In this document: piece by piece, positions 1,465 through 46,996 of the stretch
Numbering within the stretch: the first letter of the stretch is position 1
Layout: every line of letters starts with the position of its first letter
UHGV virus genome: UHGV-0072281
Origin: a virus
Length of the DNA: 64,000 nt
Direction: 5' to 3' (one strand)
Position numbers and translations under genes: made by a program
Notes under the pieces: generated by a model
The model's database searches: none
Told to the model about the DNA's origin: nothing
Seen by the model: the letters and a program-made list of their open reading frames with translations, nothing else

Positions 1465-2073
1465 ATGAACGAAATTACTTTGGTTCGTTTTATCGAAGCG
1501 ATGCGACTAAACGAAGCTAATCCTCACTCTCCGTTATTCATCGATTTAATGGAGGAAGAAGTCGAAGGGTTCTTAGCGTACCCGCGTTTGAAAGCGTATT
1601 TCGAACGTAAAACACCAACCGCTTACGAGAAGTTGATGTACGCGTTAGACAACCGTACTACGCTGAACACCACACCGTTTAAAGCGCTGGAAGCAATAGA
1701 CCCTACCGGGGGTGCAGGTATCCCACAACGTGTTGTGTTCTACTACATCGACAACGGCCGTATTAAAGCCGACGTTGTAAACTGGATCTCCGAAGGGGAA
1801 ATCCCAGAAACGCGTACTTTTAACCTCTGTCCGGTAGAAGAAGGTTGGGTCGCAGGAACGCATTATTCCTATCCGTATCAAAGCATCAAATCACCTTATC
1901 TGTATCCGGTGTATTTAGATGACGTTACGCCAGGAAAATGTATTCCCGTTACCAATCTGATTTGCTTACTGACGATGGAAGTTGTTGCGTCAGACGCAGG
2001 CCAGGCTTGGGTTGAGCAATCGAAAAATATCCAAAACTGGCAGCAGATGGGTTACAAACTCTACCAGCCGTAA
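1465..2073 (+). CDS. hypothetical protein
   Basis: 202-aa ORF; no recognisable motifs (no Mre11 phosphoesterase motifs). Confidence 0.5.
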   Translation: MNEITLVRFIEAMRLNEANPHSPLFIDLMEEEVEGFLAYPRLKAYFERKTPTAYEKLMYALDNRTTLNTTPFKALEAIDPTGGAGIPQRVVFYYIDNGRIKADVVNWISEGEIPETRTFNLCPVEEGWVAGTHYSYPYQSIKSPYLYPVYLDDVTPGKCIPVTNLICLLTMEVVASDAGQAWVEQSKNIQNWQQMGYKLYQP

Positions 2074-2079
2074 TACCAC

Positions 2080-2121
2080 GAGAGAACCTTCGGGTTCTCT
2101 CCCTTCTCTTTTATTTTTTTT
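2080..2121 (+). terminator. rho-independent terminator (gagagaacc ttcg ggttctctc + long T-run)
   Basis: perfect 9-bp stem, tetraloop, poly-T. Confidence 0.65.
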
Positions 2122-2146
2122 TCTTTTTACACCACGCTCCGTGAAT

Positions 2147-4663
2147 ATGGAGGTGGACATGTTAAAAGTTGAACGTATTGTACTTAAAGGATTTACCGGA
2201 ATGGGGTTACACGAAATCGAAACCTTCGATTTTACTATCCATTCCCCGACCACCATTATCCTCGGTGGTAACGGCTGCGGTAAGACCAGTTTACTGTCCG
2301 TGTTTCTACCTATCGCACCTTCGAAATCCGAATTCCGTGACGGGGGTTCTTACACCAACATCTGTTTGGTTAACGACCATCGTTACAAGTTTAAGGTTGC
2401 GCGTAAAGGCAACTCACTGGTTTGCGATATCGAGAACCTGACGACGGGTACCAAAATCGTCGAACAAGGTAATGCGAAAGTGTATAACTCTCGTGTAGAA
2501 GAAATCACGGGTATTACAAAAGAGATTAAAGAGTTACTGAACGGAGAAGTGCTTTTAACGGATGCAGGAACGGAACTGCGTCGTAAGTGGTTCTACCGTT
2601 TAAGTACGTCAGACTTAACTTACGCGTTAGGTTTTTATCAACGTTTACGAAAAAACCTGACGATGTTAAACGGCGGTGTTGAAATCACCAGCCGCAAGAT
2701 TGCAGAGTTGCGCACTCGCGTGATTGATAACGAGGAAGAACGTCAGCAGTTAGCAACACGGTTAAAAGCATTAGAAGTAGATTTACGTGAACTCAACAAA
2801 CAGATTGAACAACTGCCGGGTCTGAATCGTGACGTTACGGCGGCAACGATTCAATCGCTATTGCTTAAAATCGAAGCACCGATTAATGCTATCTTGGAAC
2901 ACCGTGGCGGATTACCTACGGAAGAACAGGTAGAGGAAGCACGACGCGTTGAAGCCACTGCCCGTGAAGCGGTGGTCTCTGCTGAAACAGAACTGTCCAT
3001 GCTAAACAAAGATTTGTCTTTGTTGATGGACGAGTCTACCCGCCAAGATTACCTGATGCGGAATCACGAGGGGTTAAAGAACACGGTTGCAAAACTGCGT
3101 GAGTTATTAAAGCAGTGGGACACCGAACATCTTTTCCCTGAACTGTTTGCGGAGACCGTTAATATCGACCAGCTTAAAGCAGCGACAGATGCGCGTGTCT
3201 GGGGACAACGTTTAGGAACAACGCTGGATGCTATTAAATCAACGGAACGGTTGAACGTACTGGAAGAGAAACTGTTGACCTTAGACCAAAACTCATCTGG
3301 GTTGCGTGACCGACTACAACGCGTTGAAAACGTATTGCAGAACCTCAACCACGAACGGAATCACTATTTGGAAACCGCCGAGGTTGATTGTCCGCAGTGT
3401 CAATTTAAATTCCGTCCGGGTGTGCGTCGTTCTTTGCCTGAATTGGAAGAAGCCATTCGTGGACAAATGGAGCAACGTAATACGTTACAGACTCAGCTTG
3501 ATTCCGTATTGCGAGACCGTACGGAATTAGAGTCGGACGTTAACTACATGCGTCAAGTACGAGAAATCGTTTTAACGTACTCGAAAGACCCGGTATTGAG
3601 TTTGTTCTTTAAACGTCTCCAGGAGCGGAATGTCTTTACGGATAACCGCAGTCAATTCGGCAGTCTGTGCGCGGAGTTTGATCATGAACTTTATTCCGCA
3701 ATTGAATACCACGAAACGAAACACCGTTTTGCTAAAGCGGAAAAAGAGTGGGCAAACGCAGTTGCAGCGGTAGGTAACGTTGATGGCGCTCTACAGCAGA
3801 AAATTGCCTTCCAGCAGGAGCGTTTGGGTAAGGCGACAGAAACGCTCTCAGAGCGCCGTAGAGAGCACGCAGTTGCTAATGATACCTTTTGTTATCTAAA
3901 CGAACTTAAAGCCACTGTAGACAATTTTAATGCGGTTTTTGAGCGTTTAGAGAACGATGTTAAGGTAACATTAACCAACACAGTGGTCGAAACGTTATTA
4001 AACGCCCGAGAAAACAAGTTGGATGCGTTCACCACAGCACGGGAACGGTACCGTCAGATGGAAAACGAACTCAACCAACTTACTGCGTTAGAAAAGGAGT
4101 TATCGGATTTACAAGCGCAGCAATTCAATAACAAACTGATGATTCAAGCGTTCTCGCCCGAGAAAGGGGTATTACGCAAATACTTCTACAACGCTATCGT
4201 GAGAATCACAGAATTAATGACGCGGTATATCGAACAAGTCTGGACCTACCCTATGCGGGTCATGCCGTGTGACTTAACCGACGGTGACTTAGACTACACG
4301 TTCCCAGTGCAGTTAAAAACCCATCCTGAACCGGTACCTGACGTGCGGAAAGGGTCGAAAGCGCAGCGGGCCATCTTTAATTTGATGTTTCGTTTAACCG
4401 CTTACAAAGCCCTGAAACTTCATCAGTATCCGCTACTGTTGGATGAACCGTCAGAAGGGATGGATGAGGAACACCGAAATAACCTCGTCGGGTTTATTAA
4501 AACCCTGGCGAATTCCGGTGAGTTCTCTCAGTTACTGGTGGTATCTCACGAAGCAGAAATTCATTCAAAACTTAACGAAGCCGCATACTGTGTTATTGAA
4601 CCTGAAGGTATAACACTGCCTGCGGTATACAACGAGGGAGTAAAAATTGTCTACGCAAACTGA
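2147..4663 (+). CDS. Rad50/SbcC-like SMC-family recombination ATPase (T4 gp46-like)
   Basis: Walker A GGNGCGKTSLL near N-terminus; long coiled-coil-like middle with CPQC zinc-hook motif (~3389-3400); C-terminal Walker B/D-loop LLLDEPSEGMD. ORF track start 1982 rejected: it overlaps the upstream terminator; in-frame ATG at 2147 or 2159 preferred. Confidence 0.75.
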   Translation: MEVDMLKVERIVLKGFTGMGLHEIETFDFTIHSPTTIILGGNGCGKTSLLSVFLPIAPSKSEFRDGGSYTNICLVNDHRYKFKVARKGNSLVCDIENLTTGTKIVEQGNAKVYNSRVEEITGITKEIKELLNGEVLLTDAGTELRRKWFYRLSTSDLTYALGFYQRLRKNLTMLNGGVEITSRKIAELRTRVIDNEEERQQLATRLKALEVDLRELNKQIEQLPGLNRDVTAATIQSLLLKIEAPINAILEHRGGLPTEEQVEEARRVEATAREAVVSAETELSMLNKDLSLLMDESTRQDYLMRNHEGLKNTVAKLRELLKQWDTEHLFPELFAETVNIDQLKAATDARVWGQRLGTTLDAIKSTERLNVLEEKLLTLDQNSSGLRDRLQRVENVLQNLNHERNHYLETAEVDCPQCQFKFRPGVRRSLPELEEAIRGQMEQRNTLQTQLDSVLRDRTELESDVNYMRQVREIVLTYSKDPVLSLFFKRLQERNVFTDNRSQFGSLCAEFDHELYSAIEYHETKHRFAKAEKEWANAVAAVGNVDGALQQKIAFQQERLGKATETLSERRREHAVANDTFCYLNELKATVDNFNAVFERLENDVKVTLTNTVVETLLNARENKLDAFTTARERYRQMENELNQLTALEKELSDLQAQQFNNKLMIQAFSPEKGVLRKYFYNAIVRITELMTRYIEQVWTYPMRVMPCDLTDGDLDYTFPVQLKTHPEPVPDVRKGSKAQRAIFNLMFRLTAYKALKLHQYPLLLDEPSEGMDEEHRNNLVGFIKTLANSGEFSQLLVVSHEAEIHSKLNEAAYCVIEPEGITLPAVYNEGVKIVYAN

Positions 4664-13319: not shown

Positions 13320-13324
13320 CAACG

Positions 13325-13368
13325 CCTCCTGTATCCTTCGGGGTACAGGAGGTATTTTCTTTTTAACG
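13325..13368 (+). terminator. rho-independent terminator (cctcctgtatcc ttcg gggtacaggagg + T-run)
   Basis: 12-bp stem with one mismatch, then ATTTTCTTTTT. Confidence 0.6.
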
Positions 13369-13406
13369 TTTAACCCCCTTCTAATGTATAGAGAAAGGAG
13401 CTTAAC

Positions 13407-14141
13407 ATGACATACCCGAAAACGATTCAACCCACCTTACCGACGCTGGTAATTGGTGCTGACGCAGAAACCAAATCACTGCGTCCTGATGCGTATTTGT
13501 TAACCACAGGCTTAGTTGCCTTTGACGTACCGACTTTAAAAATGGTAGGGTCGTCGTATATGCGTATTGATCCTAACGACCCTAAAGCAAAAGCTGTGTT
13601 CCACGAAGACCCGCAAACCGTGGGGTGGTGGGAAGGTAAAGGAGAACCTGAATACGCACCGTCTCGTGAAGCCTACACGGAAGCATGGGGTGGTACAACT
13701 CCTATGCCGGAAGCGCTGTGGGCAATGCGGAAGTGGTTAGACGAAATCACCGGCAAACACAATTTCGTTATTACCATGCGTGGGCCAGATTTCGATTCTC
13801 CAATTTTCATGAACGCGTTCGCACAATGTGACGTCCCTCCAGGTAAGTTCCGTAAGTTTAGTGCGTTAGACAGCGACCGCACCGCAGAGCGTTTAGCGCT
13901 GGCGTTTGGTTTTGAGCCTGACTTGACCGTTGAGCAAGTTTACTGGACGCGGGGTAAACCGGCATTTGAACACCATGCTTTGTGGGACGCTGCGAAAGAA
14001 GCGTACACCACCGCACGTATTTATCACCTTGCACTGATTACCCGCGAGTATGGGTACGAACGTGCTAAAGCCTGTCACGAAGAACTGAAAACCGGTGAGT
14101 ATATTCCACCACAGATTCGTGATCAGTTAACCAGGGATTAA
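13407..14141 (+). CDS. DnaQ-like DEDDh 3'-5' exonuclease
   Basis: Exo I-like LVIGADAET, Exo II-like GPDFDSPIF, Exo III HHALWDA (H-x-A-x-x-D). Confidence 0.55.
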   Translation: MTYPKTIQPTLPTLVIGADAETKSLRPDAYLLTTGLVAFDVPTLKMVGSSYMRIDPNDPKAKAVFHEDPQTVGWWEGKGEPEYAPSREAYTEAWGGTTPMPEALWAMRKWLDEITGKHNFVITMRGPDFDSPIFMNAFAQCDVPPGKFRKFSALDSDRTAERLALAFGFEPDLTVEQVYWTRGKPAFEHHALWDAAKEAYTTARIYHLALITREYGYERAKACHEELKTGEYIPPQIRDQLTRD

Positions 14142-14143
14142 GA

Positions 14144-15655
14144 ATGAAGAACGTTGATGTTGCTGTACTTTATACCGACGGTAGCCATTTAACCTCACCG
14201 ATGGGAACAGGCGGTGGGATTCACGGCTACCTGTTTAACAAGGAAGAGATTGTTGACGGTGGCGTTTATCGCCACCCTACCATTCCCGAAGGGATTACGA
14301 CCTCTGGTTATCGTCAGATTAACAAAGAGGAAAAACTTCCTGCGTTACCAGACTCCGTTGAGTTTGTGGACTGCGTTATTCCAGTACCGAAACACCACCA
14401 CTCCGATGTTGCAGAGATTGTTGCTTTTTTAACCGTTTTCGAAAAAGCACCATTCGTTGCAAAAAACTACGTTATCTATATCGACGCGTCTTACGTTGTG
14501 AATACGTTTAACGATTGGATTGACGGTTGGGCTAAGCGGGACTGGCGACGGGCTGATGGAACCCCTATCGCGAACCTTGAGCTGGTTCAACGGATGTGGG
14601 AAATTAAGAAACGTCTGAAGAGAGAAGGGAAAGGGATTCGTGTTCTTAAAATCAAAGGACACTCTGGTCACTACGGTAACGAACGAGCTGACGGGCTGGC
14701 ACGAAAAGGATCATCCATCTCTGCGCACGGAGAAGGTTTAGATTATCAGGCGTACTGGTCAGCAGATGAAATCCCGGAAGAACAGCAGGAAGAAATCGTC
14801 AGTGAAGGCGTTAACGTTGCCGCGTTTCCTGATATTTGCGTAACTAAGTTCTGTTACCCGATGGTAAATGAGCAGCACCCTACAGTTAAAGTAAACGGTG
14901 AAAATCTCTATTACATGTTCGGGGGTAACCACGCAAAACAGAAGGACGATATTGTCTTCGTTGGGAAATACATTCCTGATGCGCAGTTTTGTGTGATGTT
15001 TACACGTGAGCCGTGGACGAACGTTTACGATTTGGTTAACACCCACGCTGCTAAAGCCTGGGAGGGCGTACCACGTTTGCGTCAGTTTGACCCTATCGCT
15101 GTTGTGTTCAACCTGTTCGTAAAACGTAAGAAGTTTGCGGAAGCAGCGGCTAACGGTATCCCGGTTGACAAAATGCACTTTAGCGAAGACAAAAACCTGT
15201 GGATGTACGAAGACTTGTCTATCAGTCGTATTCTGCGTCCCGCGTTATTGTCATACCGCTGCGTAACCATTCGTGATGAACTGGCAGAGTGGCTGCGTGA
15301 CTGTTTGGAAGGCAAATCGAACGTTGTCTTAAATGACATTACCGATTTGCTTTATGACGAAAAAGGTAAACCCACCAAAGACTTTTACCGAAACGTGGAT
15401 AAAGGGTTTGACGTTTCCATTAAAATTCCTAACGGGAAGGTTGACGTTAAAACTATTCTGACGCGTGCTATCGACATACCGACACGTACGGAAATCAACC
15501 GTATTAAAGAACCAAACGGGCGATTCTACATTGCTGTACGTCGTCCAGAACGTCAGTATATTGAATACGCGTTAGTGTATATCGGTGAGAAGTATCATGG
15601 TCTGTGGTGTGGTTATTATTCAAACAAACGAATATTGACCGATAAGGAACTTTGA
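14144..15655 (+). CDS. RNase HI-like domain (N-terminal ~190 aa) fused to ~300-aa domain of unknown function
   Basis: LYTDGS (Asp), AEIVAF (Glu), IDASYVV (Asp), KGHSGHYGNERADGLA matches RNase HI KGHAGHPENERCDELA. Confidence 0.65.
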   Translation: MKNVDVAVLYTDGSHLTSPMGTGGGIHGYLFNKEEIVDGGVYRHPTIPEGITTSGYRQINKEEKLPALPDSVEFVDCVIPVPKHHHSDVAEIVAFLTVFEKAPFVAKNYVIYIDASYVVNTFNDWIDGWAKRDWRRADGTPIANLELVQRMWEIKKRLKREGKGIRVLKIKGHSGHYGNERADGLARKGSSISAHGEGLDYQAYWSADEIPEEQQEEIVSEGVNVAAFPDICVTKFCYPMVNEQHPTVKVNGENLYYMFGGNHAKQKDDIVFVGKYIPDAQFCVMFTREPWTNVYDLVNTHAAKAWEGVPRLRQFDPIAVVFNLFVKRKKFAEAAANGIPVDKMHFSEDKNLWMYEDLSISRILRPALLSYRCVTIRDELAEWLRDCLEGKSNVVLNDITDLLYDEKGKPTKDFYRNVDKGFDVSIKIPNGKVDVKTILTRAIDIPTRTEINRIKEPNGRFYIAVRRPERQYIEYALVYIGEKYHGLWCGYYSNKRILTDKEL

Positions 15656-16323
15656 TGCTGATTGTTTTTAGTCAAGCGTTATCGATGGCACCGAGTTATA
15701 TCCAGATACGCTTTTCAGCAATTGCGCGTCAGCAGTGGGGCTTTAAAGCCCCCTATTCTGACGATCACTATACACTCGGTGAAGTAGCACTTGAACTTGC
15801 TTTACGTTCATTGTGGGAAATCATTGCATTATACAATGCAGGTTGTGATATACCGAAAGATTGTTTCCCACAGCGGGTGATTGCACAAAGCACTACGAAC
15901 ACTTACGGTAATCCGGCATTGGTAGAAGAGTGCTTAGGCTACGCTAACCAATCCGGGGAACTGCAACACAACTTTAATCTGGTGATTAACAAAGTCTGGA
16001 GTGAGTTGGAAAGCTACCCTGAAAAGATTATCTGGTTTGATCGTAACCAATTCGTTAAGGAGGCGGCCAGTAAACGACCCGTACGTTTAGTTGCCTTAAA
16101 GCCCACCGACCTTGATTTGAAACAAACGTATCCCTTCCCGGAAGAAATTCGACTTTCTCCAGAAACCGTAGGACACACTATTTTCAAACAAGGTGACGCC
16201 TGGATACTTCCTCACGATCTAGACCGTTTCCTGCTCAACTCCGATCAGATTCACTCCGGCTATGATTCTCTCGTGAAAGAGTTTCACATCGATCCCTATT
16301 TCGCTAAAAATTTTCTTAGATAG
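15652..16323 (+). CDS. hypothetical protein
   Basis: 223-aa ORF, coupled overlap with upstream gene. Confidence 0.5.
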   Translation: MMLIVFSQALSMAPSYIQIRFSAIARQQWGFKAPYSDDHYTLGEVALELALRSLWEIIALYNAGCDIPKDCFPQRVIAQSTTNTYGNPALVEECLGYANQSGELQHNFNLVINKVWSELESYPEKIIWFDRNQFVKEAASKRPVRLVALKPTDLDLKQTYPFPEEIRLSPETVGHTIFKQGDAWILPHDLDRFLLNSDQIHSGYDSLVKEFHIDPYFAKNFLR

Positions 16324-16360: not shown

Positions 16361-17098
16361 ATGTTGAAAGTTTATGTCCCTCAATTACAACGTATTAATC
16401 CCTCGTTGTTCGAGGGATTCTTTTATAAATTTTGGCCACAATACTTCAATGAACATTTGAAGGACCCGAGGTGGTCAACCGCACAAGGAGAATTCTTTTA
16501 TACCGCACAGACTGCCTGCACAAACGTCTTTACTCGTCTCATCGCTGAGGTTATTGACGCTGTCAACACCAACCGAAACTTTGACCTTCGTGACGTCGTA
16601 ATAGATCTCTCAGCGATCTTCGATAACTACGATTGCGATGACGCAGTATTCGAACATTTCTCCTCTGAAGATGTGTGGGAGGCCGTTTATCAATGGCTAG
16701 AATACTACGTGAATTTTCTACTTTCCTCGAACATGTTAGAAAATTACAATAAAGCACTCTTTCCCATTTATAACGACTTAGTGAACGTTAAACTGACAAA
16801 GAATCTCGTTGGTTTTTGGTATTCGACCTACGACGCTGAAAGCAGATTGTGGGAAAAAGAAATGATCGCTTACGGCATCGAGCGCGGCGATTATGATGAA
16901 TTATATCGATGTTATTGGCCGTTCAATCATTACGAAAAAGGGTGTCAAGGCGATCCGTATTTGTGGTCTTTTTATTTCTGTAATCAGACTGGTGTTATTT
17001 ATCTTGAAGACACCGGTGTACGAATCCCTAACGGTACTGATGTAACATACTGCCAATTACGTAAAGACCGGGCTGACGCCATTTATCAGGATTATTAA
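16361..17098 (+). CDS. hypothetical protein
   Basis: 245-aa ORF. Confidence 0.5.
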   Translation: MLKVYVPQLQRINPSLFEGFFYKFWPQYFNEHLKDPRWSTAQGEFFYTAQTACTNVFTRLIAEVIDAVNTNRNFDLRDVVIDLSAIFDNYDCDDAVFEHFSSEDVWEAVYQWLEYYVNFLLSSNMLENYNKALFPIYNDLVNVKLTKNLVGFWYSTYDAESRLWEKEMIAYGIERGDYDELYRCYWPFNHYEKGCQGDPYLWSFYFCNQTGVIYLEDTGVRIPNGTDVTYCQLRKDRADAIYQDY

Positions 17099-18656: not shown

Positions 18657-18662
18657 TACACA

Positions 18663-18694
18663 CCCTAGCTTCGGCTAGGGTTACTTTATATTTA
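18663..18694 (+). terminator. rho-independent terminator (ccctagc ttcg gctaggg + T-rich)
   Basis: 7-bp stem, TTCG loop. Confidence 0.55.
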
Positions 18695-18715: not shown

Positions 18716-19648
18716 ATGTATTTGTACAAAAGTAAAAAAGTAAAAGGTATTAAAGACTGCCTTAGACAAATGGGGAGTCAGCATCTAGAAAATGTCATGG
18801 AAGAAAATCAAACAAAAGAAAATCCTGTCTCGAAATGGATAAAAAAGAATCGTAATCATCTAACCAATAGCTTTATACCGTATAATGAAGATTTAGGTCT
18901 CAAAGATCCACGTTCCCTTCACGCTCAAACATTGGCAATTGGATGGCTATACGGTGGTTCTTCCTTAATATCCGATCGAGCACTTAGAGAACTTGTTTTT
19001 GAGACTGAGATGCCCAGTAAATTCCCTGAAGAGTGGTTAGACTTTATACCTACTTGGACTGTAGCAATCGATGTAGGTAAAGAAGATGAGACTTTCTTTC
19101 TCGGCTATCGAAAAAATGGGAAGAGAAGGTTTATTATAATTGCTACAAATACTGATTACGGGTTAACAGAAGGCGTTACCACGATTGCCACTTGTTCGTT
19201 AGAGCTTCGTAGTGCAGGAAACGGACTTGTGGAAATCGACTATGCCGACGGTGTGGAGAACGAACAAGAAAAGATGCTATGGTTATCTCTGGCCAAAGCC
19301 GCCACATCGATGATATTTCTGTGCACCCTAATCCCACCTAATCTCAAAGCGTCTTACAATGACGTTAAGTTCAAAGAAATCAAAAAGAACGGCAGTATTA
19401 GCTACGAAGTCAAACCACGTGAACGTGATGTTAAAGTGGATATCACACCAGGACAAGTAAAATATCTGAAAGGATTCAACACCGACTTGAAAGCCATGCA
19501 AGGTATCAAACACGCTAAAGCTGCGCACATTCGTCGTGCCCACTGGCGTAGATACTGGGTTGGCCCAAGAAACGGTGAAAGAAAAAGAAAACTTTGCTGG
19601 ATTCCACCGACATTTGTTCGCGGCTACGTACCCCACACGCAAGACTAG
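18716..19648 (+). CDS. hypothetical protein, paralog family B, conserved basic C-terminal HIRRAHWRR motif
   Basis: C-terminus KAAHIRRAHWRRYWVGP...W.PP.F; internal LGWLYGG..ISD segment shared with next gene. Confidence 0.55.
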   Translation: MYLYKSKKVKGIKDCLRQMGSQHLENVMEENQTKENPVSKWIKKNRNHLTNSFIPYNEDLGLKDPRSLHAQTLAIGWLYGGSSLISDRALRELVFETEMPSKFPEEWLDFIPTWTVAIDVGKEDETFFLGYRKNGKRRFIIIATNTDYGLTEGVTTIATCSLELRSAGNGLVEIDYADGVENEQEKMLWLSLAKAATSMIFLCTLIPPNLKASYNDVKFKEIKKNGSISYEVKPRERDVKVDITPGQVKYLKGFNTDLKAMQGIKHAKAAHIRRAHWRRYWVGPRNGERKRKLCWIPPTFVRGYVPHTQD

Positions 19649-19658
19649 GAGAATTATA

Positions 19659-20543
19659 ATGTTAAGACGCAGAATTTATGGAGACACGCTTCGACGTATT
19701 AGTGAAGCTATAGAGACTGCACACAAAGACTTGTTTGGTCTGAAAGAAGATCGTTTTCTAACGTTTGTCAGGGAACACAAGAGGCAACTTCCCGTAACCT
19801 TTCTGCCCGTTAACGACCCAACGTACCGTGTGTTCGGCACCACCAAACAGGTGCCGTATTCTATCCGTCAATCGTTAGGTTTGGGCTGGCAATACGCAGG
19901 TATTGAAATTATCTCTGATAACGAGTTGATGGCGTTACTTGCAGACACTGAACGTTTAACGGATATTCCGTACGCGTGGATTGAAGCCATCCCTTCGTTC
20001 ACCTTTTCCGTGACTGTCAAGATTAACGAACTTCCTGCTACACTCTTTATCGGTCGTCGTAAATTCGAAGGTGAAGAAGTATTGTTCGTTTTACGATGGG
20101 TGGAGATAAATCAGCGGCACTGTTGGACAACCAAGATTTATCGGTTCAACAGAAAGGCAGATGACTTTGTTAGTTTAGAGCCTTACTTTGCTAACGAGTC
20201 AAAGGACGAGGAACTTCTGGATGAGGTACATATCGGTTTATATCTTTCCTCGCGGGTGAAGAAATCAGAACGCGAGCGACGGGAATACCGTGGTAGAACG
20301 ACACGTTACGTACCTGATACAGAAATCCTTCCACGCAGAGAACCTGTCGTTGTTGACGTAAGTCCAGTACAACGCGAAGACTTAGAGAAACAACGCAGGG
20401 AAGGCAGGAGAATCTGTTTAACGCCGCATCGCGCAGCACACATACGCAGGGCACATTGGAAACGGGTCTGGTGTGGGCCAATGACAGGCCCACGCTGGCA
20501 GGAGTGGCGATGGATTGCACCCGCCTTTATTTCCGGATTTTAG
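19659..20543 (+). CDS. hypothetical protein, paralog family B
   Basis: C-terminus RAAHIRRAHWKRVWCGP...W.AP.F; start moved to internal ATG 19659 with AGGAG RBS (track start 19536 overlaps upstream gene). Confidence 0.55.
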   Translation: MLRRRIYGDTLRRISEAIETAHKDLFGLKEDRFLTFVREHKRQLPVTFLPVNDPTYRVFGTTKQVPYSIRQSLGLGWQYAGIEIISDNELMALLADTERLTDIPYAWIEAIPSFTFSVTVKINELPATLFIGRRKFEGEEVLFVLRWVEINQRHCWTTKIYRFNRKADDFVSLEPYFANESKDEELLDEVHIGLYLSSRVKKSERERREYRGRTTRYVPDTEILPRREPVVVDVSPVQREDLEKQRREGRRICLTPHRAAHIRRAHWKRVWCGPMTGPRWQEWRWIAPAFISGF

Positions 20544-21765: not shown

Positions 21766-23262
21766 ATGGCAGGCCCAACTAAGCAAGTTATCGGTGAAGT
21801 AATTCGTCCTCGTTTTAACGTTTATACCATCATGGACCACGCCTTAGGCAACTACGAAAGAGGCGAAGATGGTTTATACTACCTTAACGGTGGTTTTGCC
21901 CACATCATGGGTTTCGCGGGTCGTGGTAACACCTTCAAATCCACACTGTTGGATTTCTGTATCTTCCAAATCCTGCAACGCTATAAAGCAGAGTGGGGTT
22001 CGAAATACGATACCGAAGTGTCTGCTGCCCTCGATCGCTTAGAGACCGGTTATATTTCTGCCATGCACGCCAACGGTATTGACGATGGAACTTCGGTACT
22101 GGAACTTATTCACGAAGGTCGTTATAACCTCGTTGGTTCTGACGTGATGCCCGGGGAACAGTATTACAGTGACTATATTCGTGATGAAGTGGAAAAACGC
22201 TTCAAGCAGTATATGTCTGGTAAAACGCGTGTAACGCCGTTCCTTGACCCGGTTCGTCGTAAGCAAAAAGAAATCCTTGACCCGTGGCTGTATTCTATCG
22301 ACTCCCTGTCGGAGTGGCACTCGTCTTCTCTGGAAGACAAGCACGCTAAAACGGATATCGGTGATTCCGATCAGAACATCCTCAACGCCCACGACGCCTT
22401 ACAGAAATCGAACATGATGAGCCGTTGGCCGTCTGCGTTTGCCCGTGGTGGTTTCTACATGGGCTTTGTTGCACAGATGGCCGATGACTCCGGTAAGGCG
22501 ATGGCGGGCGGTCGTCAAGGGCAGAAAGCAAACGCGAAACTGCTGGACGATGCGAACGACGATCTCAAATTCGCAGGGATTCCTCGTCGTCAGTTAAGCT
22601 TCCTGACTAACTCGTTTATTGTTGCGACAAAATCAGGCGAGCTGAAAAAAGACCAGAGTTATAACGCCCAGACCGGTGTTAACGAAGAACTTTACCCAAC
22701 CGCACGTTCAAAAGCCATGAACGCATCGGTTAACGACCTGAAAGTTATCACCTTTACGCAGTACCGTGCTAAAGGTGGACACACGGGTGTGAAGTTCCAG
22801 ATGATCTTCTCGCAAGAGATGGGTCTACTGTACCACCTGAGCCTGTGGCATTACCTGAGTGACACTCTGAAAAAATCCGAATTTGGATTTACATCCAGCG
22901 GTAGCGGTGGTTCCATTAAAGAACTCCAGATTCTTCCTGGAGTTAAATTCCAGCGTACGACGATTCGCGACATGATCGACGATAACCCGAAACTGCGTCG
23001 GGCGTTAGAAATCACGGCCGCGATTGCGTACATGCAGAACAACTACCATCGTTTAGAGGTTAAATACCACCTCACGATGGAAGAAATCTACAAACTCATT
23101 GATGAAAAATGGGATTGGAATGAGATTCTGGAGAACACCGTAGAATACTGGATGTTTAAAGACCAAGAAACGAAAGGTGGTAAACGCACGTTAACTGCCC
23201 GTACGATTCTGGGTATGGTCGTGGACGGCCTGGAACCGAAGTTCCTCACCAAAAAGAAATAA
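21766..23262 (+). CDS. UvsX/RecA-like recombinase (divergent)
   Basis: unusual P-loop FAGRGNTFKS parallels T4 UvsX AGPSKSFKS (recalled); Walker-B-like LYSIDSLS; DIGDSD and AMAGGRQ parallel RecA EIGDSHMG and UvsX MGGGTG. Confidence 0.6.
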   Translation: MAGPTKQVIGEVIRPRFNVYTIMDHALGNYERGEDGLYYLNGGFAHIMGFAGRGNTFKSTLLDFCIFQILQRYKAEWGSKYDTEVSAALDRLETGYISAMHANGIDDGTSVLELIHEGRYNLVGSDVMPGEQYYSDYIRDEVEKRFKQYMSGKTRVTPFLDPVRRKQKEILDPWLYSIDSLSEWHSSSLEDKHAKTDIGDSDQNILNAHDALQKSNMMSRWPSAFARGGFYMGFVAQMADDSGKAMAGGRQGQKANAKLLDDANDDLKFAGIPRRQLSFLTNSFIVATKSGELKKDQSYNAQTGVNEELYPTARSKAMNASVNDLKVITFTQYRAKGGHTGVKFQMIFSQEMGLLYHLSLWHYLSDTLKKSEFGFTSSGSGGSIKELQILPGVKFQRTTIRDMIDDNPKLRRALEITAAIAYMQNNYHRLEVKYHLTMEEIYKLIDEKWDWNEILENTVEYWMFKDQETKGGKRTLTARTILGMVVDGLEPKFLTKKK

Positions 23263-23307: not shown

Positions 23308-23607
23308 ATGCGTTATCAAACGGAGATTGTGGAGCGCTTAAGCGAAGGTTTAGCCAGCGTCAGTCTGGAAACAGCAGCGGCATTTCGTGAGACTTTCGCT
23401 ACTTTCTTTCCCGATCGTGAATCTTTTTGTTTAAAGGTCGGTGAATATTATTCCAAGTTACTCGAACACTACGGTTACCCGCCGGTGAAATTCGACGTAC
23501 CTGAAAACACCGACGACATCAGTTATTGGATTGAAACCCTCGAAGCAGGGACACTTTCCAACTTGCGTAAGGCGGTAGAAAATGAAACTCGATCCAGCGC
23601 GGCGTAA
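23308..23607 (+). CDS. hypothetical small protein
   Basis: 99-aa ORF with AAGGAG RBS. Confidence 0.5.
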   Translation: MRYQTEIVERLSEGLASVSLETAAAFRETFATFFPDRESFCLKVGEYYSKLLEHYGYPPVKFDVPENTDDISYWIETLEAGTLSNLRKAVENETRSSAA

Positions 23608-24250
23608 AAAAGCAGAAGCTTACGCCTTACAAATCTTAAACCTGGTTGACCCCTCTGGGATTAACGCAGAGGCAGCAAAGAAAGCTTTTGCTCGAATGAC
23701 AGACGAACAGTTTAATCGTCTTCGTGAAGGGCTACCGATTTACAACCCGGTTGGCAGTAAAGTTAAAATAGACCACATGCGAAACGTTGAGCTATGTCGC
23801 GTTTTAGGTCTGAACCTGGAACAGCGGTTGTGGTTAACTGAGCCGAAAACGGGTGTTTTCCATCGTACCCGCTACCCACATCTGGTATTGCGCTTGCCTG
23901 CGCGTCGACAAACGCAGATGCAAGAAAAGAAAATGGCAGTAGCGAAGAACGACAAAGTTCGTGATAAACTCTCCGGTCAGGTTGTGGGTCCTTCTAAAGC
24001 ATCAGGTGTATCTTTCCCAGAAGCGTACATCATGTACTCGGATGGCCACGACTGGACACTGAAAGAGTTTCTGTGGGCGCGTGGGGGTAACGAAGCGTTA
24101 CAACGTGCGTTCTATCAATCGTTACGTCAAACCGGTAAGGGACGTATTGACCTACCAGGGGCAGAACGTACCAGTTCAAAAGCAACACGTACCTGGTCTG
24201 CGTATCTGAAAGCGATGCACATTGGTAACAACATAGGCCATCCGTCATGA
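23582..24250 (+). CDS. hypothetical protein
   Basis: 222-aa ORF, overlaps upstream by 26 nt. Confidence 0.45.
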   Translation: MKLDPARRKKAEAYALQILNLVDPSGINAEAAKKAFARMTDEQFNRLREGLPIYNPVGSKVKIDHMRNVELCRVLGLNLEQRLWLTEPKTGVFHRTRYPHLVLRLPARRQTQMQEKKMAVAKNDKVRDKLSGQVVGPSKASGVSFPEAYIMYSDGHDWTLKEFLWARGGNEALQRAFYQSLRQTGKGRIDLPGAERTSSKATRTWSAYLKAMHIGNNIGHPS

Positions 24251-31507: not shown

Positions 31508-31827
31508 TGACTGTGAACGACAATATAAAGAAAAAGATTGACGAGATTATAAGCGTCAGTTTAGATAGAATCGAGTTAATTCCCGAGACTAAGGAAATCA
31601 AATACTACGTTCCCGCAGACGAACTATTTCCAGGTCTTCTTAGAATCTCACCAAAAAAGGTTGAAGAGGCTAAACGCCAATTCGAAGTTCGTGGCCTTAA
31701 GGTTGACATTGTTAACAAAAAACATTTTCATGTAACGTATAGCCAGGAAAACATTATTTTTAGTCCTGAGCAAGCGCAACGTAATTTAGATATTTTAACG
31801 AAACGAATGGGGAATAATAACAAATGA
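31507..31827 (+). CDS. hypothetical protein
   Basis: 106-aa ORF. Confidence 0.45.
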
Positions 31828-32864
31828 AACAGTATTTAGCGTTAATGCAAGACATTCTGGATAACGGCGTTGTCAAAAAAGACCGTACAGGTGTAGGGAC
31901 ACTTTCTGTATTTGGTCGCCAACTACGTTTTGACCTGAAAGAAGGTTTCCCATTAGTTACTACGAAAAAGGTTCACCTGAAAAGTATCATTCATGAACTG
32001 TTGTGGTTCTTAAACGGTGACACTAACGTGAAGTACCTGCAAGAGAATGGGGTAAGAATCTGGAACGAGTGGGCGAATGAAGAAGGGGAATTAGGCCCTG
32101 TCTACGGGCAGCAGTGGCGGGAATGGATGGATACCAAACTGGTTTATCTTTGGGACGAGCGTAGCAAAGACGTATTGAGAGAACGAGGATATCGCTACAT
32201 TGGGACTATCGCAAAGGACGATCCTGAAGAAAGTATCGTTATTTATCGCAAATCTCACGACCAGATCAGTAAAGTTATTCAACAACTTCGTGAAGACCCA
32301 GATTCACGACGCATTATTGTTAGTGCCTGGAACGTAGGTGATCTGGACGATATGGCACTTAACCCATGCCATAATTACTTCCAATTCTACACAACAGAAA
32401 TGACGTTGCTTGAACGACTGGATTGGTACGAAGTAAACGAACCGGAAAAATTTGCGAACGCACCACTTATTACTCACGAAGATATCGATAGCGAAGAACG
32501 ACTTCACGAAATTTTAGATCGTGAGGGCATTCCACGCCGTAAGCTTTCATGTTTTTACATGATGCGGAGCAACGATTACCTACTCGGCGCACCGTTTAAC
32601 GTCGCTTCTTACGCGTTGTTAACCCACATGATTGCTCAACAACTCAATATGGTTCCAGACGAGTTGGTTTATAGTGGCGTAGATGTTCATCTTTACTCTA
32701 ACCATCTGGAGCAGGCAAAACTTCAACTTACACGCGAACCTTACCCGCTACCTAAACTGGTTATCAAACGTAAACCTGATTCTATCTTCGATTACAAATA
32801 CGAAGACTTCGAATTGGTTGGGTATCAATCACACGACACAATTAAAGCTCCCATAGCTGTCTAA
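31824..32864 (+). CDS. thyA: thymidylate synthase (ThyA-type) with two internal insertions
   Basis: near-identical blocks to E. coli ThyA as recalled: [56 protein letters not shown] (catalytic Cys), [29 protein letters not shown]; 346 aa vs about 264. Confidence 0.9.
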
Positions 32865-34478: not shown

Positions 34479-35309
34479 ATGGGCGAACGTTTTGACATCA
34501 ACACTATTTACAACATCGTGGTTAATCCTGGTCAACACCTGGAAGAAGTTAACGCACAACTGCGTGCTCTGAATGAAAAAGCAATGCAGTTCGATGCTAT
34601 TTACACAATTGGTGTAAATCCTGGCACCAACCGTGTTCGTGTAGAAGGTAAACGCCACACCGGTAATCAAGAACTGGATATCGAAACGATCGAAGCACCG
34701 ATTAAACTTACAGGTGCCGAATATAACGGTACAGTAATGCACACCGTATCGGTTCCGGTCTACTCTATCGAGAACTGTGTAGAACGTGTTAAAGGTTGGT
34801 CTAAAGAACGTGGTATTCTCGACAACGGTAAACTGGAAACACAAATCACAAAGTTCTTTGAAGAGTTTGGTGAAATCGCAACAGGTATCAGCAAAAACAA
34901 ACCTGAACTGATCATGGACGGTATCGGCGATGCGTTAGTGGTTCTGGTGAACATTCTGGAACTGGGTAAAGAATACCATGACGAATACTTAACAACGGCC
35001 GATATTATTAGTAGCGGTTTAACTATGCAACTTCGTGATGTTGCAAATGTTGAAGCTTGTGCAAACGATCATAAATTCCCACATCGAAAATACCTGGAAG
35101 CAACTAAATCTTTTTCCACGTCTTTCTTAAATACTAACAAAGACGATAACCTGTTCGATCATGGTTTGTATTGCCTTGCTTGTCTCGCGCTGTATTACAA
35201 ACTGGACATTCGCCATTGTTTCTCTTTAGCCTGGCATGAAATCAAAGACCGTAAAGGTTACCTGAACGCCGACGGCATCTTTGTAAAAGATGCAGACTTG
35301 GCGAAATAA
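34479..35309 (+). CDS. MazG-like nucleotide pyrophosphohydrolase domain (C-terminal) with N-terminal extension
   Basis: FFEEFGEIATGI...DGIGDALVVLVNILE...WHEIKDRKG fits the all-alpha NTP-PPase EExxE...D..GD...L...K.R pattern. Confidence 0.5.
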   Translation: MGERFDINTIYNIVVNPGQHLEEVNAQLRALNEKAMQFDAIYTIGVNPGTNRVRVEGKRHTGNQELDIETIEAPIKLTGAEYNGTVMHTVSVPVYSIENCVERVKGWSKERGILDNGKLETQITKFFEEFGEIATGISKNKPELIMDGIGDALVVLVNILELGKEYHDEYLTTADIISSGLTMQLRDVANVEACANDHKFPHRKYLEATKSFSTSFLNTNKDDNLFDHGLYCLACLALYYKLDIRHCFSLAWHEIKDRKGYLNADGIFVKDADLAK

Positions 35310-38204: not shown

Positions 38205-41200
38205 TTAACCCGCACGTCTAACGTTAAGCTGTCGTGCTGGCTGTTCAACGGACATTTGTCGTGATGCTGAGCCTGCTGGTGCCATAGGTTGGGTCGATAC
38301 GGTGTTTTGTACCGGCTGCGGACGTTGTTTAAGAATCGTGACAATCTCTCTGAGATACCCCGCCGATTCTTTCGCAACAGCCAACTGCTGGACACTAATC
38401 GGATCACCGCTACTGAGTGTAGGCCCGTTTTGTGCATCAGAAGTAACCGCAGGTGCCGGTTTACTCGTTGCTGCTACGCGCTGCACAGCGCCTTCTTTCA
38501 CCTTCTCGACATCTTCTTCAGGCAACCCTTCGTTTCTAGCTCCAGCCGCAACGGTCTCCGCAATCGTAGAGGCGTCGCCGCCAGCACTACTACCGCCAGG
38601 TGACGGTACTGCCGGACCACCACTGGTTGCAGCTTTGACATTGTCTGCACCCATCGCACCTTTCTCTGCTAACGCATCGTCACGACGCGCAGCATTCGAT
38701 GCGGGCAAGTTATCCGTCGCTCCAGAAATTGATGGATCGTTAGCTGCTCCTGCTGCTACCGCTGGAGAGGAGGCAACCGCAGGCGTTAGCCCTTTCACCA
38801 TGTCTTTCGTTGAAGCTGGGTTAGCCGCAATTTCGTTTGTCGCCACAGCACCCATACGGCGGTTCAGTTCATTAATAACTTCGCCAACAGTACGAATACG
38901 AACAATCTGTTCGCCTCGCATTTCGTAGAAGACTCCCTTATTACCTCTAAGGATTTGAGGAGTAATACCTTCTGCTTTGTCGGCTGGCATGTTCGGATTC
39001 TGCCGCCATGCATTAAGGAACTTCTTACCACCGCCTGGACCCAAGAAGTGATACAGATACGCAACAGCCGGGGGCGGTTCTACACCACCCAGGTCTTTCT
39101 GCGCCTGCATGATATTATCACGAATAAACTGTACCCCGAGGATGGTATTTGCCCACGGGTCATACTGGTTTACTTGCGGAATACCGTACCGACGAGAATA
39201 CCCCTTCATCATTCCAGACCACGTACTGTCGATGAACTGGAACAACCCTGCTGCTGACGCACCTGGGTTCTTGACGCCGTATCTGAAACCAGATTCAGCT
39301 TTCGCCATCGCAATCGCAATCGCAGGCGGAACACCTAAGGTATTTGCGACATCTGCAATCATTGCTTTAACGCCTTCTACGTTAGGTGTCTTACCACTAC
39401 CCAGTTTACTGATTGGATATTTCTCAGCCAAGGTTTTGTAATCACCTTCTTTGACGTCCCCGAGTTTAATCCCGGATTGGCCCGTAGAGAACTTCGCGTA
39501 ATTGCTGATCCCCATCTCACCCACAACTTGAGATAAGTCACCCGGTGTACCGTAAGACGACCCACCGTTTGGCAAGTACCCATCGTTAGACGCTGTACCC
39601 CAATCAACGACACCTTTAAAGCGTTCTTTGCCATCTTCGTCGGTTTGGTACATTCTCGTCGCACGATCGGCTTTCTGCCACTTCGCACGTTTACCTGCTG
39701 CGGGAGTAGAGCGCAGGGTGTTACGAACAGCCAGGTCAGGTTCTTTTGACAGTTCTTTCAGGTTGGCAAGTTCAGTAGCAACAGAACCTGCATCAGTGTT
39801 TGCTTCCTCGCCTAGCGGGTTGAATGGAATCTCCCACACGGACTGTCGAATACCGCCCTTCATGTTGTAAGCGCCACGAATCATCAACGCCAATTCGTAC
39901 ATGAACCCACCGGATACTTTCAATTCGGTAGGGTCTGCTTGCGGAATGTAACGTTTCAGACCAACGACGTAGGTCATATACGCCGGTAAGAAACGGTTGT
40001 AGAACCAGTTCTTACAACGCTCCTCTTTAGGACCACCTATCAAGTCAGGCGAGATAACCGCAATGGCTTCTTTCCAGTTGCCTTTATAGGTACAGTTCTT
40101 CACATCAATGTCTTTCAACACGTTCTTCTCTAACAACGTGAAAAGATTACGCGTTGTTTGGTTGATAGTAACCGCACCGTAGGTTTTCCACCTGACCGAT
40201 TCCAGGTCTTCCAAATCGCTTTTCTTCGGTAATGAATGCCAGTCAACTTGGATTTGAACCTGCTCAGTCCCGTCTTCCCATCCTTCAACCTTCGCAACTT
40301 TCTCGTTACGTTCAGCATCCGCATTCGCCAATACCTGACTGGTTTCAGCAACGGACGCAATTTTGTGGCCTTCGACAGCGTCACGCATACCTGAACGTTG
40401 TTTCCGTTTGTCGTCAGTACGCATGTTGATTGACCGCCACACACGTTCCTGTGCTTCGACAACCTCTTCCCCTGACAAGAACTCTGCCGGAGTAAAGGTA
40501 ACGAAATCCCACGCTTTAGAGAACCAACCCTGGTTAACTTTACGCGGGTCAGTCAACGAACGGAATTCCGCAGAATCTTTACCCATCTTCATTTTGTTGT
40601 AGAGGGTAATCATATCCGCTTTCGACACTTTCTTCGGATCACCAACATCTGCCAAAGCGATATCGTTATCCATAGACTTCAGTGCTGAAATCCAACGGAG
40701 GTAAATCGGTGCGAAACGTTGTAACATAAACGCAGTAAATGCTAACATCTCACCACGTTCTTCCAAGTTTACACCAAACCCTTCTGCGAGTTTCTTCACG
40801 TCTTCGGAAGACAAGCCACGTAATTGTGCTTCACCCCCTTCGGTATACGAGACGTAAGGTTTCAAAGCGTCTTCTAAATAACGGGCTTTCATACCGTCTT
40901 CAGAAGACCACTGGTCGTAGTCACGGAAACCGTATTGTGCCAGACGCATATAGTCGAGGTACTGCGCTTTCACACGGGTAGCGCATTTATACGCCCAATA
41001 ACCCAGACCAGCGGCAGTCGCACCGATCACAATTGCAGGCCAACCCACCGCAGCTACCACCGTAGATGCAGCCGAGGCTACCGCAGTCACCGCCGGAACC
41101 GCTAAACGCTGTACGGCAAACTTACCAACATTCCACGCTGCTTTACCGAGGAACCCGGTAGGTTTAAAAATACCCCACTTCGCAACTTTACCCAGTATGG

Positions 41201-44200
41201 AACCCACCGTACCTAAGATACTCACGATTGGTCCTACCAACGGTAGCCCTTTGAGGAAGTCCATCACCCCGCCTTTACGTCCTTTCTGTTCGGCGGATTT
41301 CTTGGCTTTCTCTTCTTCCTTAGAACGTCTACGACGACGGAAGAATTGGAAGTAGTCGCGTTTTTCATCATTGGCTGCCGGTTTGTTACGTTGTCCGAAC
41401 TTACTGAACATCGTACGAATCAAGCCATCAGGCGCACCAGCACGTTCCGCAGAGTCGCGCATGGTGTTAAACCAGGACATTTCCTGGAGGTTAACCATCC
41501 GGTTTAAACGTTCCAGTAATGCTGAACCAACACTTTTCGCTTTCTGCTTACCTTTGTTGATAACGCGTCCTGCGCTATCCGTTGCGGTTTCGAAATCCTC
41601 TTTCGCTGCGTTAATCACGCGTGTTGGAGAAACCTTACCACGGGCGTATAAGTGTTGACGGTAAAACTCAGCAACGTCATCGTCACGGCCTGCTAAACGA
41701 GACTCCGTCCGATAGCGAGTACCGATATCGTAGCGTGGATCGCGGAAGCTATCTACCGTTTCGCCAAAGCGTCCACGGAAACGGTCAAACCAGCCTTTAC
41801 CCGCAGCACCCCAACGAGACAGTCTATCACCAACTCCCTGACGGAAACGTGAGAATCGGTCACGTTGTCTGCCTCGCCAATCCCGGAAATTCTGGAAATA
41901 GTCTTTAAACCCGTCGCGGAAATCCTTAACGCGGTTAAGCATCCCTTTGATAGATTTCGACCCAACGTTTTTCTCCAGTTGCTCCGTCCAGGATTCATCT
42001 TCAGGCTCACCATCTAAACGACGGTTAAGGAGTTTATAGATGCGAATCAGGATATGGTTGGTCTTACGGCCATTCGACCAGGAGAACATGCTGAAACCGC
42101 CGCCAGAACCCCCATCCTTACGATTCTGCCACCACCGGGTAAGCGGGTTGTCGGTCGCTAACTCTTTGAATTTCTCAAAGCCACGTTTTGCATTGTTCCA
42201 CAAACGAGCGGGCATTCCCGTTACACGGGAAATCATGCTTTGTAAACGTGTTTTCTCACTGCCTTCAGGAATCTCGTTAAGCCACTCACGTGCTTTCTCG
42301 AAGATAGACGCTGCTCTTGGTGAGATTAGACCAATAAGTTTCTTCGGTAAGTTAACGGCTTTGTTTACCGCTGTACCTGCTTTACCGGAGATATACTGGA
42401 ACAGGGCCTGGAGTTTACCGCCTTTATAGAAGCGCAGTTTACCCGCAGCCGCTAAGTCCGCCGCTGCGAGAATCAAGTTCCCGGCTTCGTCAACAATATC
42501 ACGACCCAGCTTAATGTCGTCTAACGAGCTGAGTTGTACCAGCTTGTTGGTTTTAGGGTCAGCCTGATAATACTCACCTGCCTCTAAACGGCTTCCTTGT
42601 AAAACAACATTGCCTTTCTCGTCGTAGATGTCTCGAACACCAAGAACGCCTTTCCCGAACGCTACTGCTGAATTCCAGCCTGTGGACAGCGTACCAGTAA
42701 CTAAACCTTTCAGTCGTTCAAAAACACCTGGACCGTCAGAAGACCCACCGGAGAATTTCCCACGGATAAAACTGCCCAGTGACTGTAAACGCCCTTTCCC
42801 TCTCAGGAACATGTTCTTCGCAAAACGACCAGCGCCCGTACCGGTGTCCCAAAGTACACCCGCCCAACGACGGAACAGCCCACTTTCACCAAGCACAATG
42901 CGCTTACGTTTGCGTTTGTTACCGGTACTACCCGCGTCTTCAGATGCGTCACCCTCACCGTCACGACCACCACCTAAGCTTGCCAACAGAATACCTTCTT
43001 CATCCATGTTCTTGACATGTTTCAGAATTTCCTGCACGGTGTTGGATTCGGATTTGTTACGGATAGCATCAACGATTCTATCAAACTGTTGCTCTAAACC
43101 CGCATTAGTGTCAGGCCGTTCGCTTAACAGTTCAACAAAGTTGGTGGATTTTTCACCGTAGAGGACAGCAGCAAGTTGTCGTGCTGACAGCCCACGGCCA
43201 CCACGTCCACCTTTACCTTTAACGGTGTCAATAGTCGACTCGTCACCGGTTACGGAAGCGTCTACACCCAAACGACGTAAGTAGTCACCTAGCGCAGAAC
43301 CGTTTTTCAGTTTGCGCTGGATTTCTTGCTCACGGGTTAACGAACGACCAGAGCGAGTTTTCCCCATGGCCAGGTCGTTGTATAGCGTATACGGATCGTT
43401 AATGTCTTTATCTACATCAAACCGATCGTTCTTCGCATCGTACTTAAAGATACCTGCGTCACGTAACGCATTCTCGCCGTAGATAATTGAGGCTTCGTCT
43501 ACCGTGTTTTGACGTGCACGAATTGTTGACTGAATAGCTGAAATCTTACCAGCAATCTCGTTGCTCAGTTCGTGATGACCGCCTGCCAGTTCTGAAGACC
43601 GTGCTTCTAAGACCGCCTGAATCGCTTCTACCGCGTTCGCATTCATGTAACGATACATGTGCATCGGGTCTTTCAGCAGACTGCCTACGTCGAATGCCTT
43701 ACCTTCAGACGCACGGGATTCGATATAGTCCGCCAGCGCCTGGCGAGTTTTCGAATCCAGAGTTTTGTCTTTGTCGATAAAGTCAACGGTTTCGTTAATG
43801 TACTGCTGTAAACGTTTACGCTGTTCGTCATTAGCAACTGCCTTACGTACGCGATTGCCAATAACTTTACGATCCACCATACCTCGCGTGGTCAGGTCAT
43901 AAACCTGATCGTGGTGTTCGCCATATCCACGACGAATAGATTTGTTAATCTCCGTCAGCAAGGTCGGGATGACTTCCGTGATGCTAAGATATGCTTTACG
44001 GTCGAACTTCGCTGCTGCTGATAACGCCTCTGCTGAACGTTCTTCTAAAGCTAATCCCTCACGACGCAGCGGTGTCACTAACCCCATCTCGTGCATTAAA
44101 CGGAAGACAGTGGCCAATGGACCATCTATCTCACCAGCAATCGCTGAGTTAGAGATAGAAGATAAGTTACCGAACCCGTAGCGTGCCAACTGAAGCCGTT

Positions 44201-46993: not shown

Positions 46994-46996
46994 TCA

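Follow-up and report, generated by a model that had tools for sequence, protein, structure and literature searches.

An orthologue of the Chimalliviridae RNase H-clamp protein Rhc/PhiKZ155 encoded beside a clade-specific DEDDh exonuclease gene

The DNA examined here, referred to hereafter as the window, is a stretch of 64,000 nucleotides from the virus genome UHGV-0072281. This report concerns two adjacent genes within it, the first predicted to encode a DEDDh exonuclease and the second (rhc) an RNase HI domain followed by a long C-terminal extension (Table 1). Taken as a whole, the locus is very probably explained by rhc being an orthologue of the genes for Rhc of phage Goslar and PhiKZ155 of phage phiKZ, with a role in the replisome assigned by orthology and with a clade-specific exonuclease gene placed upstream. 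An initial annotation made from the DNA letters had described the extension as a novel accessory domain. This description was not sustained, as the entire 503-aa architecture corresponds to PHROG 3265, the known Rhc/PhiKZ155 family, so that the window protein adds a sequence to an established two-domain family and not a concept. The fusion of RNase H to a clamp-derived domain is likewise known: the architecture was published in 2025 and its role was reported in a preprint of October 2026. The remaining interest of the locus lies in the clade-specific partnership with an exonuclease and in natural variants of the family that lack the RNase H motifs.

Membership of the family is evident over the full length of the protein. 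PHROG 3265 ('ribonuclease') matched residues 1-503 at 7e-168, and in tblastn 176 phage genome records covered the rhc product to 80% or more. A profile of the C-terminal domain recovered 840 cluster representatives (50% identity), 456 of them at 1e-10 or better; nearly all were 450-570 aa long and carried the domain at the C-terminus. BLASTP aligned the rhc product with PHIKZ155 over residues 5-493 (7e-33, 25% identity) and with Goslar gp190 over residues 73-496 (2e-26, 23% identity), and the C-terminal domain alone was sufficient to find Goslar (3e-8), phiKZ (2e-4) and PhiPA3. The gene order was also shared. In the window, phiKZ and Goslar, an opposite-strand virion structural gene is followed by one or two small genes and then by rhc, with a UvsX-like gene a few genes downstream. 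The gene frame is thus the same in all three genomes, and rhc is a positional orthologue of PHIKZ155 and Goslar gp190.

The resemblance to Goslar Rhc (gp190, HOV27_gp190; PMC13648698) extends to the two-domain architecture (508 compared to 503 aa), the phage family and the syntenic position, with the opposite-strand virion structural gene alongside and the UvsX-like gene not far away, but a gene for a 183-aa hypothetical protein stands upstream of Goslar rhc in place of the DEDDh exonuclease. PhiKZ155, also called Nlp2, and its PhiPA3 homologue are full-length homologues encoded by a core Chimalliviridae gene with matching synteny. The phiKZ system differs in that no exonuclease gene adjoins PHIKZ155. 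In phiKZ the essential role of the protein did not depend on catalysis (PMC12571901). The closest correspondence is with Salmonella phage SPN3US and Erwinia phage Asesino, in which the same pair is present in the same gene order: ACQ60_gp059 ('ribonuclease') with exonuclease gp060 in SPN3US, and gp226 ('putative ribonuclease H') with gp225 in Asesino. Their sequences diverge from the window at about the genus level, and their records annotate only the RNase H part of the protein.

The initial annotation had itself noted that a frameshift might hide two separate genes in the 503-aa open reading frame. The lack of a Pfam hit to the second half of the protein fits such a fusion artefact, and nothing else does. 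The architecture is uninterrupted in all 176 phage genome records and in hundreds of metagenomic cluster representatives among the 840 matched by the profile, and the structural model described below is confident across both domains. We consider the chance of an artefact to be negligible and rejected it in favor of a single continuous gene. The reverse was seen in a few records of SPFM Salmonella phages (P0048-P0051), in which the rhc products are aberrant or truncated, for example to a 319-aa 'hypothetical protein', probably as a result of sequencing or assembly errors.

The N-terminal part of the protein is a type-1 RNase H domain. Pfam PF00075 covered residues 81-190 (E=2.3e-20), and in a phmmer search the structures of E. 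coli and human RNase H1 were matched at about 1e-11, the basic protrusion included. All five catalytic residues (Table 1) showed little or no variation across 37 homologues, and the protein contains the KGHSGHYGNERAD motif. The RNase HI domain that the initial annotation had recognized from its catalytic residues and motif is thus confirmed, with the fold, the DEDD(H) active site and the basic protrusion of a type-1 enzyme. Compared to the cellular type-1 enzymes (E. coli RNase HI and the catalytic domain of human RNase H1), the window protein has an additional insert of about 40 aa past strand 2 and a C-terminal extension of 300 aa, while the hybrid-binding domain of eukaryotic RNase H1 is absent. 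By analogy with PhiKZ155, which is active in vitro, the window protein would be expected to cleave the RNA strand of RNA:DNA hybrids.

The linker between the domains is strongly acidic in the clade to which the window belongs, whereas the equivalent segment of the phiKZ protein is not. Within it, W205 is invariant in the closer homologues and variable across the wider family. The acidic linker could act as a DNA mimic, as an autoinhibitory element or as an element related to import.

The extension has no recognisable sequence motif, as had been claimed for it: residues ~196-503 gave no Pfam, NCBIfam or PDB sequence match in searches with the sequence alone or with a profile. Searches with the C-terminal domain against PDB sequences (as a profile), Pfam (with each member of the alignment) and PHROGs, each at E up to 10, returned no clamp family and only phrog_3265 and noise. 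The initial annotation had proposed structure prediction followed by a structure search for this region. An AlphaFold2 model of the full-length protein, built from the alignment of 37 sequences, was confident over both domains with a predicted local distance difference test score (pLDDT) of 88.1. Modeled alone, the C-terminal domain was compact (pLDDT 87.7, predicted template modeling score 0.84). We read its secondary structure as three to four alpha-beta-beta-beta units, and 20 of its positions are Lys or Arg in at least 80% of the sequences. In the structure search the nearest neighbors were sliding-clamp protomers, at a weak, grey-zone similarity (Z scores no higher than 6.5, template modeling scores no higher than 0.27).

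These neighbors comprise sliding clamps and processivity factors of the clamp fold (PCNA, 9-1-1, T4-type gp45 and the herpesvirus proteins UL42/UL44/PF-8), and the domain shows what we read as alpha-beta-beta-beta repeats, along with conserved basic residues. Unlike these factors, it is fused covalently to an enzyme and has no sequence relationship to clamps. Comparison of the N-terminal and C-terminal halves of the domain by hhalign found no internal repeat. Clamp domains seldom retain sequence symmetry, so the missing repeat is no argument against a clamp fold. Taken alone, our structural evidence is of grey-zone strength; it agrees with what the preprint by Rani et al. reports for Goslar, and together with it supports the derivation of the C-terminal domain from a clamp. 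The structural analysis was done before the preprint was known to us. We dropped the lead of a possibly novel clamp, since the clamp-derived domain is already described in that preprint (PMC13648698). That a blind search arrived at the clamp-like fold given there lends the assignment support in another, distant branch of the family.

Published work on the family places the protein in replication. Iyer et al. 2021 (PMC7824862) reported that phages of the phiKZ group have no classical sliding clamp or recognisable primase and that their PolB has no fused 3'-5' exonuclease, while RNase H1 occurs in all of them, with primer removal as its proposed role. Kokontis et al. worked with gp155 (Nlp2) as a cargo of the phage nucleus that depends on Imp1 for its import. 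Gerovac et al. 2025 (Nature; PMC12571901) counted PhiKZ155 among the core proteins and described it as RNase HI, at the N-terminus, combined with a C-terminal domain that folds well. The protein has true RNase H activity in vitro and works in the phage nucleus, and genome amplification and maturation of the nucleus both require it; degradation of the host genome was not seen. In their study the catalytic mutant D102N still complemented, and D102 of PhiKZ155 aligns with D114 of the window protein. Rani et al. (bioRxiv, 2 October 2026, PMC13648698) named the Goslar protein Rhc, for RNase H-clamp, and reported that it is essential, binds DNAPC and forms the third subunit of the polymerase DNAPN-DNAPC-Rhc. 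According to the same preprint, the clamp-derived domain and RNase H catalysis are both required in Goslar, and Rhc also aids late transcription, probably via R-loop resolution. On these accounts, catalysis is dispensable in phiKZ (PMC12571901) but needed in Goslar (PMC13648698).

By orthology with the phiKZ and Goslar experiments, the window protein would be imported into the phage nucleus by PicA/Imp1, where it would join DNAPN and DNAPC as the third subunit of a split DNA polymerase. The clamp-derived domain would bind DNA and keep the RNase H at the replisome, where the enzyme would clear RNA from RNA:DNA hybrids such as primers and R-loops; without Rhc, genome amplification and nucleus maturation would be predicted to stall. 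Like UL42/UL44, the C-terminal domain may be an accessory factor of the polymerase that works without a clamp loader.

The weak structural similarity and the missing sequence link to clamps both weigh against this assignment. They would fit a C-terminal domain that serves chiefly as an adaptor between proteins in nuclear import, presenting a surface recognised by PicA/Imp1, or as a licensing sensor, with its clamp likeness incidental. Nlp2 does need Imp1/PicA for its import, by way of specific surface interfaces, and the interaction has been proposed to be stable. We nevertheless consider an adaptor or sensor of this kind very improbable and retain a clamp-derived, DNA-binding domain as the preferred assignment.

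Variation in the active site bears on the question of catalysis. Of 182 family members with a length of 400 aa or more, 163 have an intact D-E-D-H-D pentad, which argues that catalysis is under strong purifying selection. Most of the remaining exceptions are gaps due to truncated N-termini or are the aberrant SPFM gene products. Five rare representatives (P0070, P0071, P0079, P0129 and P0186) retain the C-terminal domain and, at the N-terminus, the hairpin/insert segment specific to the family (hhalign E=4e-5, 38 columns) but lack the catalytic Asp, the basic protrusion and the KGH...NE.AD motif. P0071 (L005 533-2290), which has an added N-terminal Macro domain, is a positional orthologue, since its neighbors on the contig are those of the window (phrog_4682, UvsX and the RNA polymerase beta gene phrog_3233). 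Such motif-less orthologues bear on the disagreement between the phiKZ and Goslar reports over the need for catalysis. Two further members, P0117 (668 aa) and P0145 (675 aa), have, N-terminal to the RNase H domain, an additional DNA-binding domain of the I-TevI type, which could be a remnant of a homing endonuclease or the product of a mis-merged gene call.

The upstream gene encodes an exonuclease of the DEDDh family, as the initial annotation had it. The product matched PF16473 with 47.2 bits (cut-off 27) and phrog_255 at 1e-45, and it contains the ExoI DxE, ExoII D and ExoIII Hx4D motifs. Its five catalytic residues were invariant among homologues down to 30% identity, and 3'-5' exonuclease activity is predicted from the family. 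A phmmer search of PDB sequences gave nothing useful for this protein. The names given to its relatives in databases, those of SPN3US and Asesino included, conflict (endodeoxyribonuclease, exoribonuclease, exonuclease), and no assay behind any of these names was found.

The exonuclease and rhc are probably read together. A very strong terminator-like hairpin ahead of the exonuclease gene ends the preceding transcription unit, so that the exonuclease gene opens a new one, and no terminator was found between it and rhc. Its TAA stop codon (14139-14141) is followed two bases on by the ATG of rhc at 14144, just 5' of which a GGGA element lies inside the exonuclease reading frame. The two genes would be co-transcribed, and the coupling in translation named in the initial annotation is probable from their spacing. 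A second UUCG-loop hairpin at 18662-18681 may, together with the first, bound an operon of ~5.3 kb.

The pair is found in the same order and orientation in SPN3US (with overlap), Asesino, CR5 (with overlap) and pVa-21 (with a 166-nt gap) and, by coordinates, in every other inspected record of the SPN3US/Erwinia/CR5/pVa-21 clade. At the rhc locus of phiKZ-type phages, Goslar and Xoo-sp14 the exonuclease is absent, and a search of the phiKZ, Goslar and Xoo-sp14 genomes at E up to 0.01 revealed no relocated copy, even when the query was the jumbo-phage exonuclease that diverges most. Its next relatives beyond the clade are in small temperate Vibrio phages. From this distribution, the exonuclease is a clade-specific addition and not a core gene. 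The partnership noted in the initial annotation is therefore real as an adjacency but is confined to one clade and is not a general feature of the family.

We propose that the exonuclease cooperates with Rhc on 3' ends, either trimming RNA fragments left by RNase H or proofreading DNA; the polymerase is reported to have no fused exonuclease. In its strongest form, this idea would make the exonuclease of the SPN3US/Erskinevirus/Derbicusvirus/pVa-21 clade a physical partner of Rhc and a fourth accessory subunit of the Chimalliviridae polymerase (for 3'-5' proofreading or RNA-fragment trimming), with the motif-less lineages marking the clamp-derived domain as the indispensable core of the family, a proposal that we regard as doubtful. 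The pair marks a candidate additional component of the replisome of SPN3US-like phages, and these are genetically tractable.

The exonuclease could instead be an unrelated accessory nuclease, involved in nucleotide salvage, anti-defence or RNA turnover, whose position next to rhc has no functional meaning. Its non-core status within a single clade, its Vibrio phage relatives and an intergenic spacing that varies up to the gap in pVa-21 would all fit, as would the cytoplasmic location of a putative exonuclease of phage RAY, if that protein is homologous to the window exonuclease. Yet adjacency and orientation persist across several genera while the identity of the exonuclease drops from 67% to 34%, the genes directly adjoin or overlap one another in the window, SPN3US and CR5, and the pair has a terminator ahead of it and none within it. 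An unrelated nuclease is thus a possibility of some weight, though still on the unlikely side.

The initial annotation had read the two genes together as a module that processes nucleic acids, either to remove primers or to break down nucleic acid of the host. Both nuclease domains are intact, primer removal has been proposed for the RNase H1 of the phiKZ group (PMC7824862) and the extension has no Pfam, NCBIfam or PDB sequence match, all of which would suit such a module. Against it, the architecture is already established by phrog_3265, PhiKZ155 and Rhc; the orthologue works as a polymerase subunit within the phage nucleus; and the exonuclease is missing from phiKZ, Goslar and Xoo-sp14, which shows that the module is not the conserved unit. 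We judge a free-standing module improbable. Of the functions proposed, the link to replication through removal of primers or RNA:DNA hybrids is reasonable, whereas host nucleic-acid degradation was rejected, given that the phiKZ orthologue is located inside the phage nucleus and that degradation of host DNA was not seen (PMC12571901). An Rhc/PhiKZ155 orthologue with a clade-specific exonuclease upstream remains the preferred account of the locus.

Table 1. Coordinates of the exonuclease-rhc locus and of context genes in the window
Feature	Position	Strand	Basis or remarks
Intrinsic terminator-like hairpin (13-bp stem, UUCG tetraloop, T-run)	13324..13353	+	Between phrog_8165 gene and exonuclease gene
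Ribosome-binding site AAGGAG, 6 nt 5' of exonuclease ATG	13395..13400	+	Read from sequence
Predicted DEDDh 3'-5' exonuclease, 244 aa (Rv2179c-like, PF16473; phrog_255)	13407..14141	+	Profile matches; catalytic residues D19, E21, D130, H189, D194
rhc, RNase H-clamp protein, 503 aa, orthologue of PHIKZ155/Nlp2 and Goslar gp190	14144..15655	+	Full-length phrog_3265 match; synteny
Type-1 RNase H domain, residues 1-195	14144..14728	+	Catalytic D12/E91/D114/H173/D183; basic protrusion; family-specific ~40-aa insert past second strand
Linker, residues 196-227, net charge -9	14729..14824	+	Low confidence/disordered at residues ~209-218 (full-length model) or 209-220 (model of C-terminal domain only)
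C-terminal domain, residues ~228-503, compact alpha/beta	14825..15652	+	Structural neighbors are sliding-clamp protomers; homologous to Goslar Rhc DNA-binding domain
Downstream gene phrog_9472, function unknown	15655..16323	+	ATG overlaps rhc TGA stop (TGATG)
Context genes: SbcC-like, UvsX-like recombinase, three split RNA polymerase beta-type subunits, thymidylate synthase, MazG-like pyrophosphatase, tail sheath	among 1982-4663, 21766-23262, 23582-24250, 45368-51163, 31824-32864, 34479-35309, 59952-62009

The nearest sequenced relatives of both proteins are those of Asesino (66% identity for Rhc and 63% for the exonuclease) and SPN3US (63% and 67%, respectively), whose genera are both classified in Chimalliviridae, the nucleus-forming jumbo phages. 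The window, Asesino and SPN3US share one gene order at this locus, from the virion structural gene across the pair and into the genes downstream. Judged by sequence, the window belongs to a previously unsequenced jumbo phage of Chimalliviridae akin to these two. Its context genes (SbcC-like, UvsX-like, split beta-type genes of a multisubunit RNA polymerase, thymidylate synthase, MazG-like and tail sheath) are all typical of that family, and the UvsX-like recombinase is the counterpart of phiKZ gp152/Nlp1. The DNA polymerase genes lie outside the 64-kb window.

Downstream of rhc, the phrog_9472 gene was listed with a TTG start codon at 15652. The in-frame ATG at 15655 is more likely to be its coupled start, and the gene is probably in the same operon as rhc. 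Further on, a terminator-like hairpin at 16397-16419 (9-bp stem and T-run) lies ~36 nt inside the open reading frame at 16361-17098 (phrog_8219); it would be either an attenuator or a sign that the true start codon of phrog_8219 lies further downstream.

Elsewhere in the window, a minus-strand open reading frame of 2377 aa at 38205-45338 matched the giant tail fibre family phrog_3201 and has a transglycosylase-like region near residues 1987-2247. The GC (guanine plus cytosine) content is higher over 38-44 kb, at 0.49-0.51 compared to ~0.45. Two adjacent and partly overlapping open reading frames, at 18716-19648 and 19536-20543, both matched phrog_6160 (function unknown) and may be tandem paralogues.
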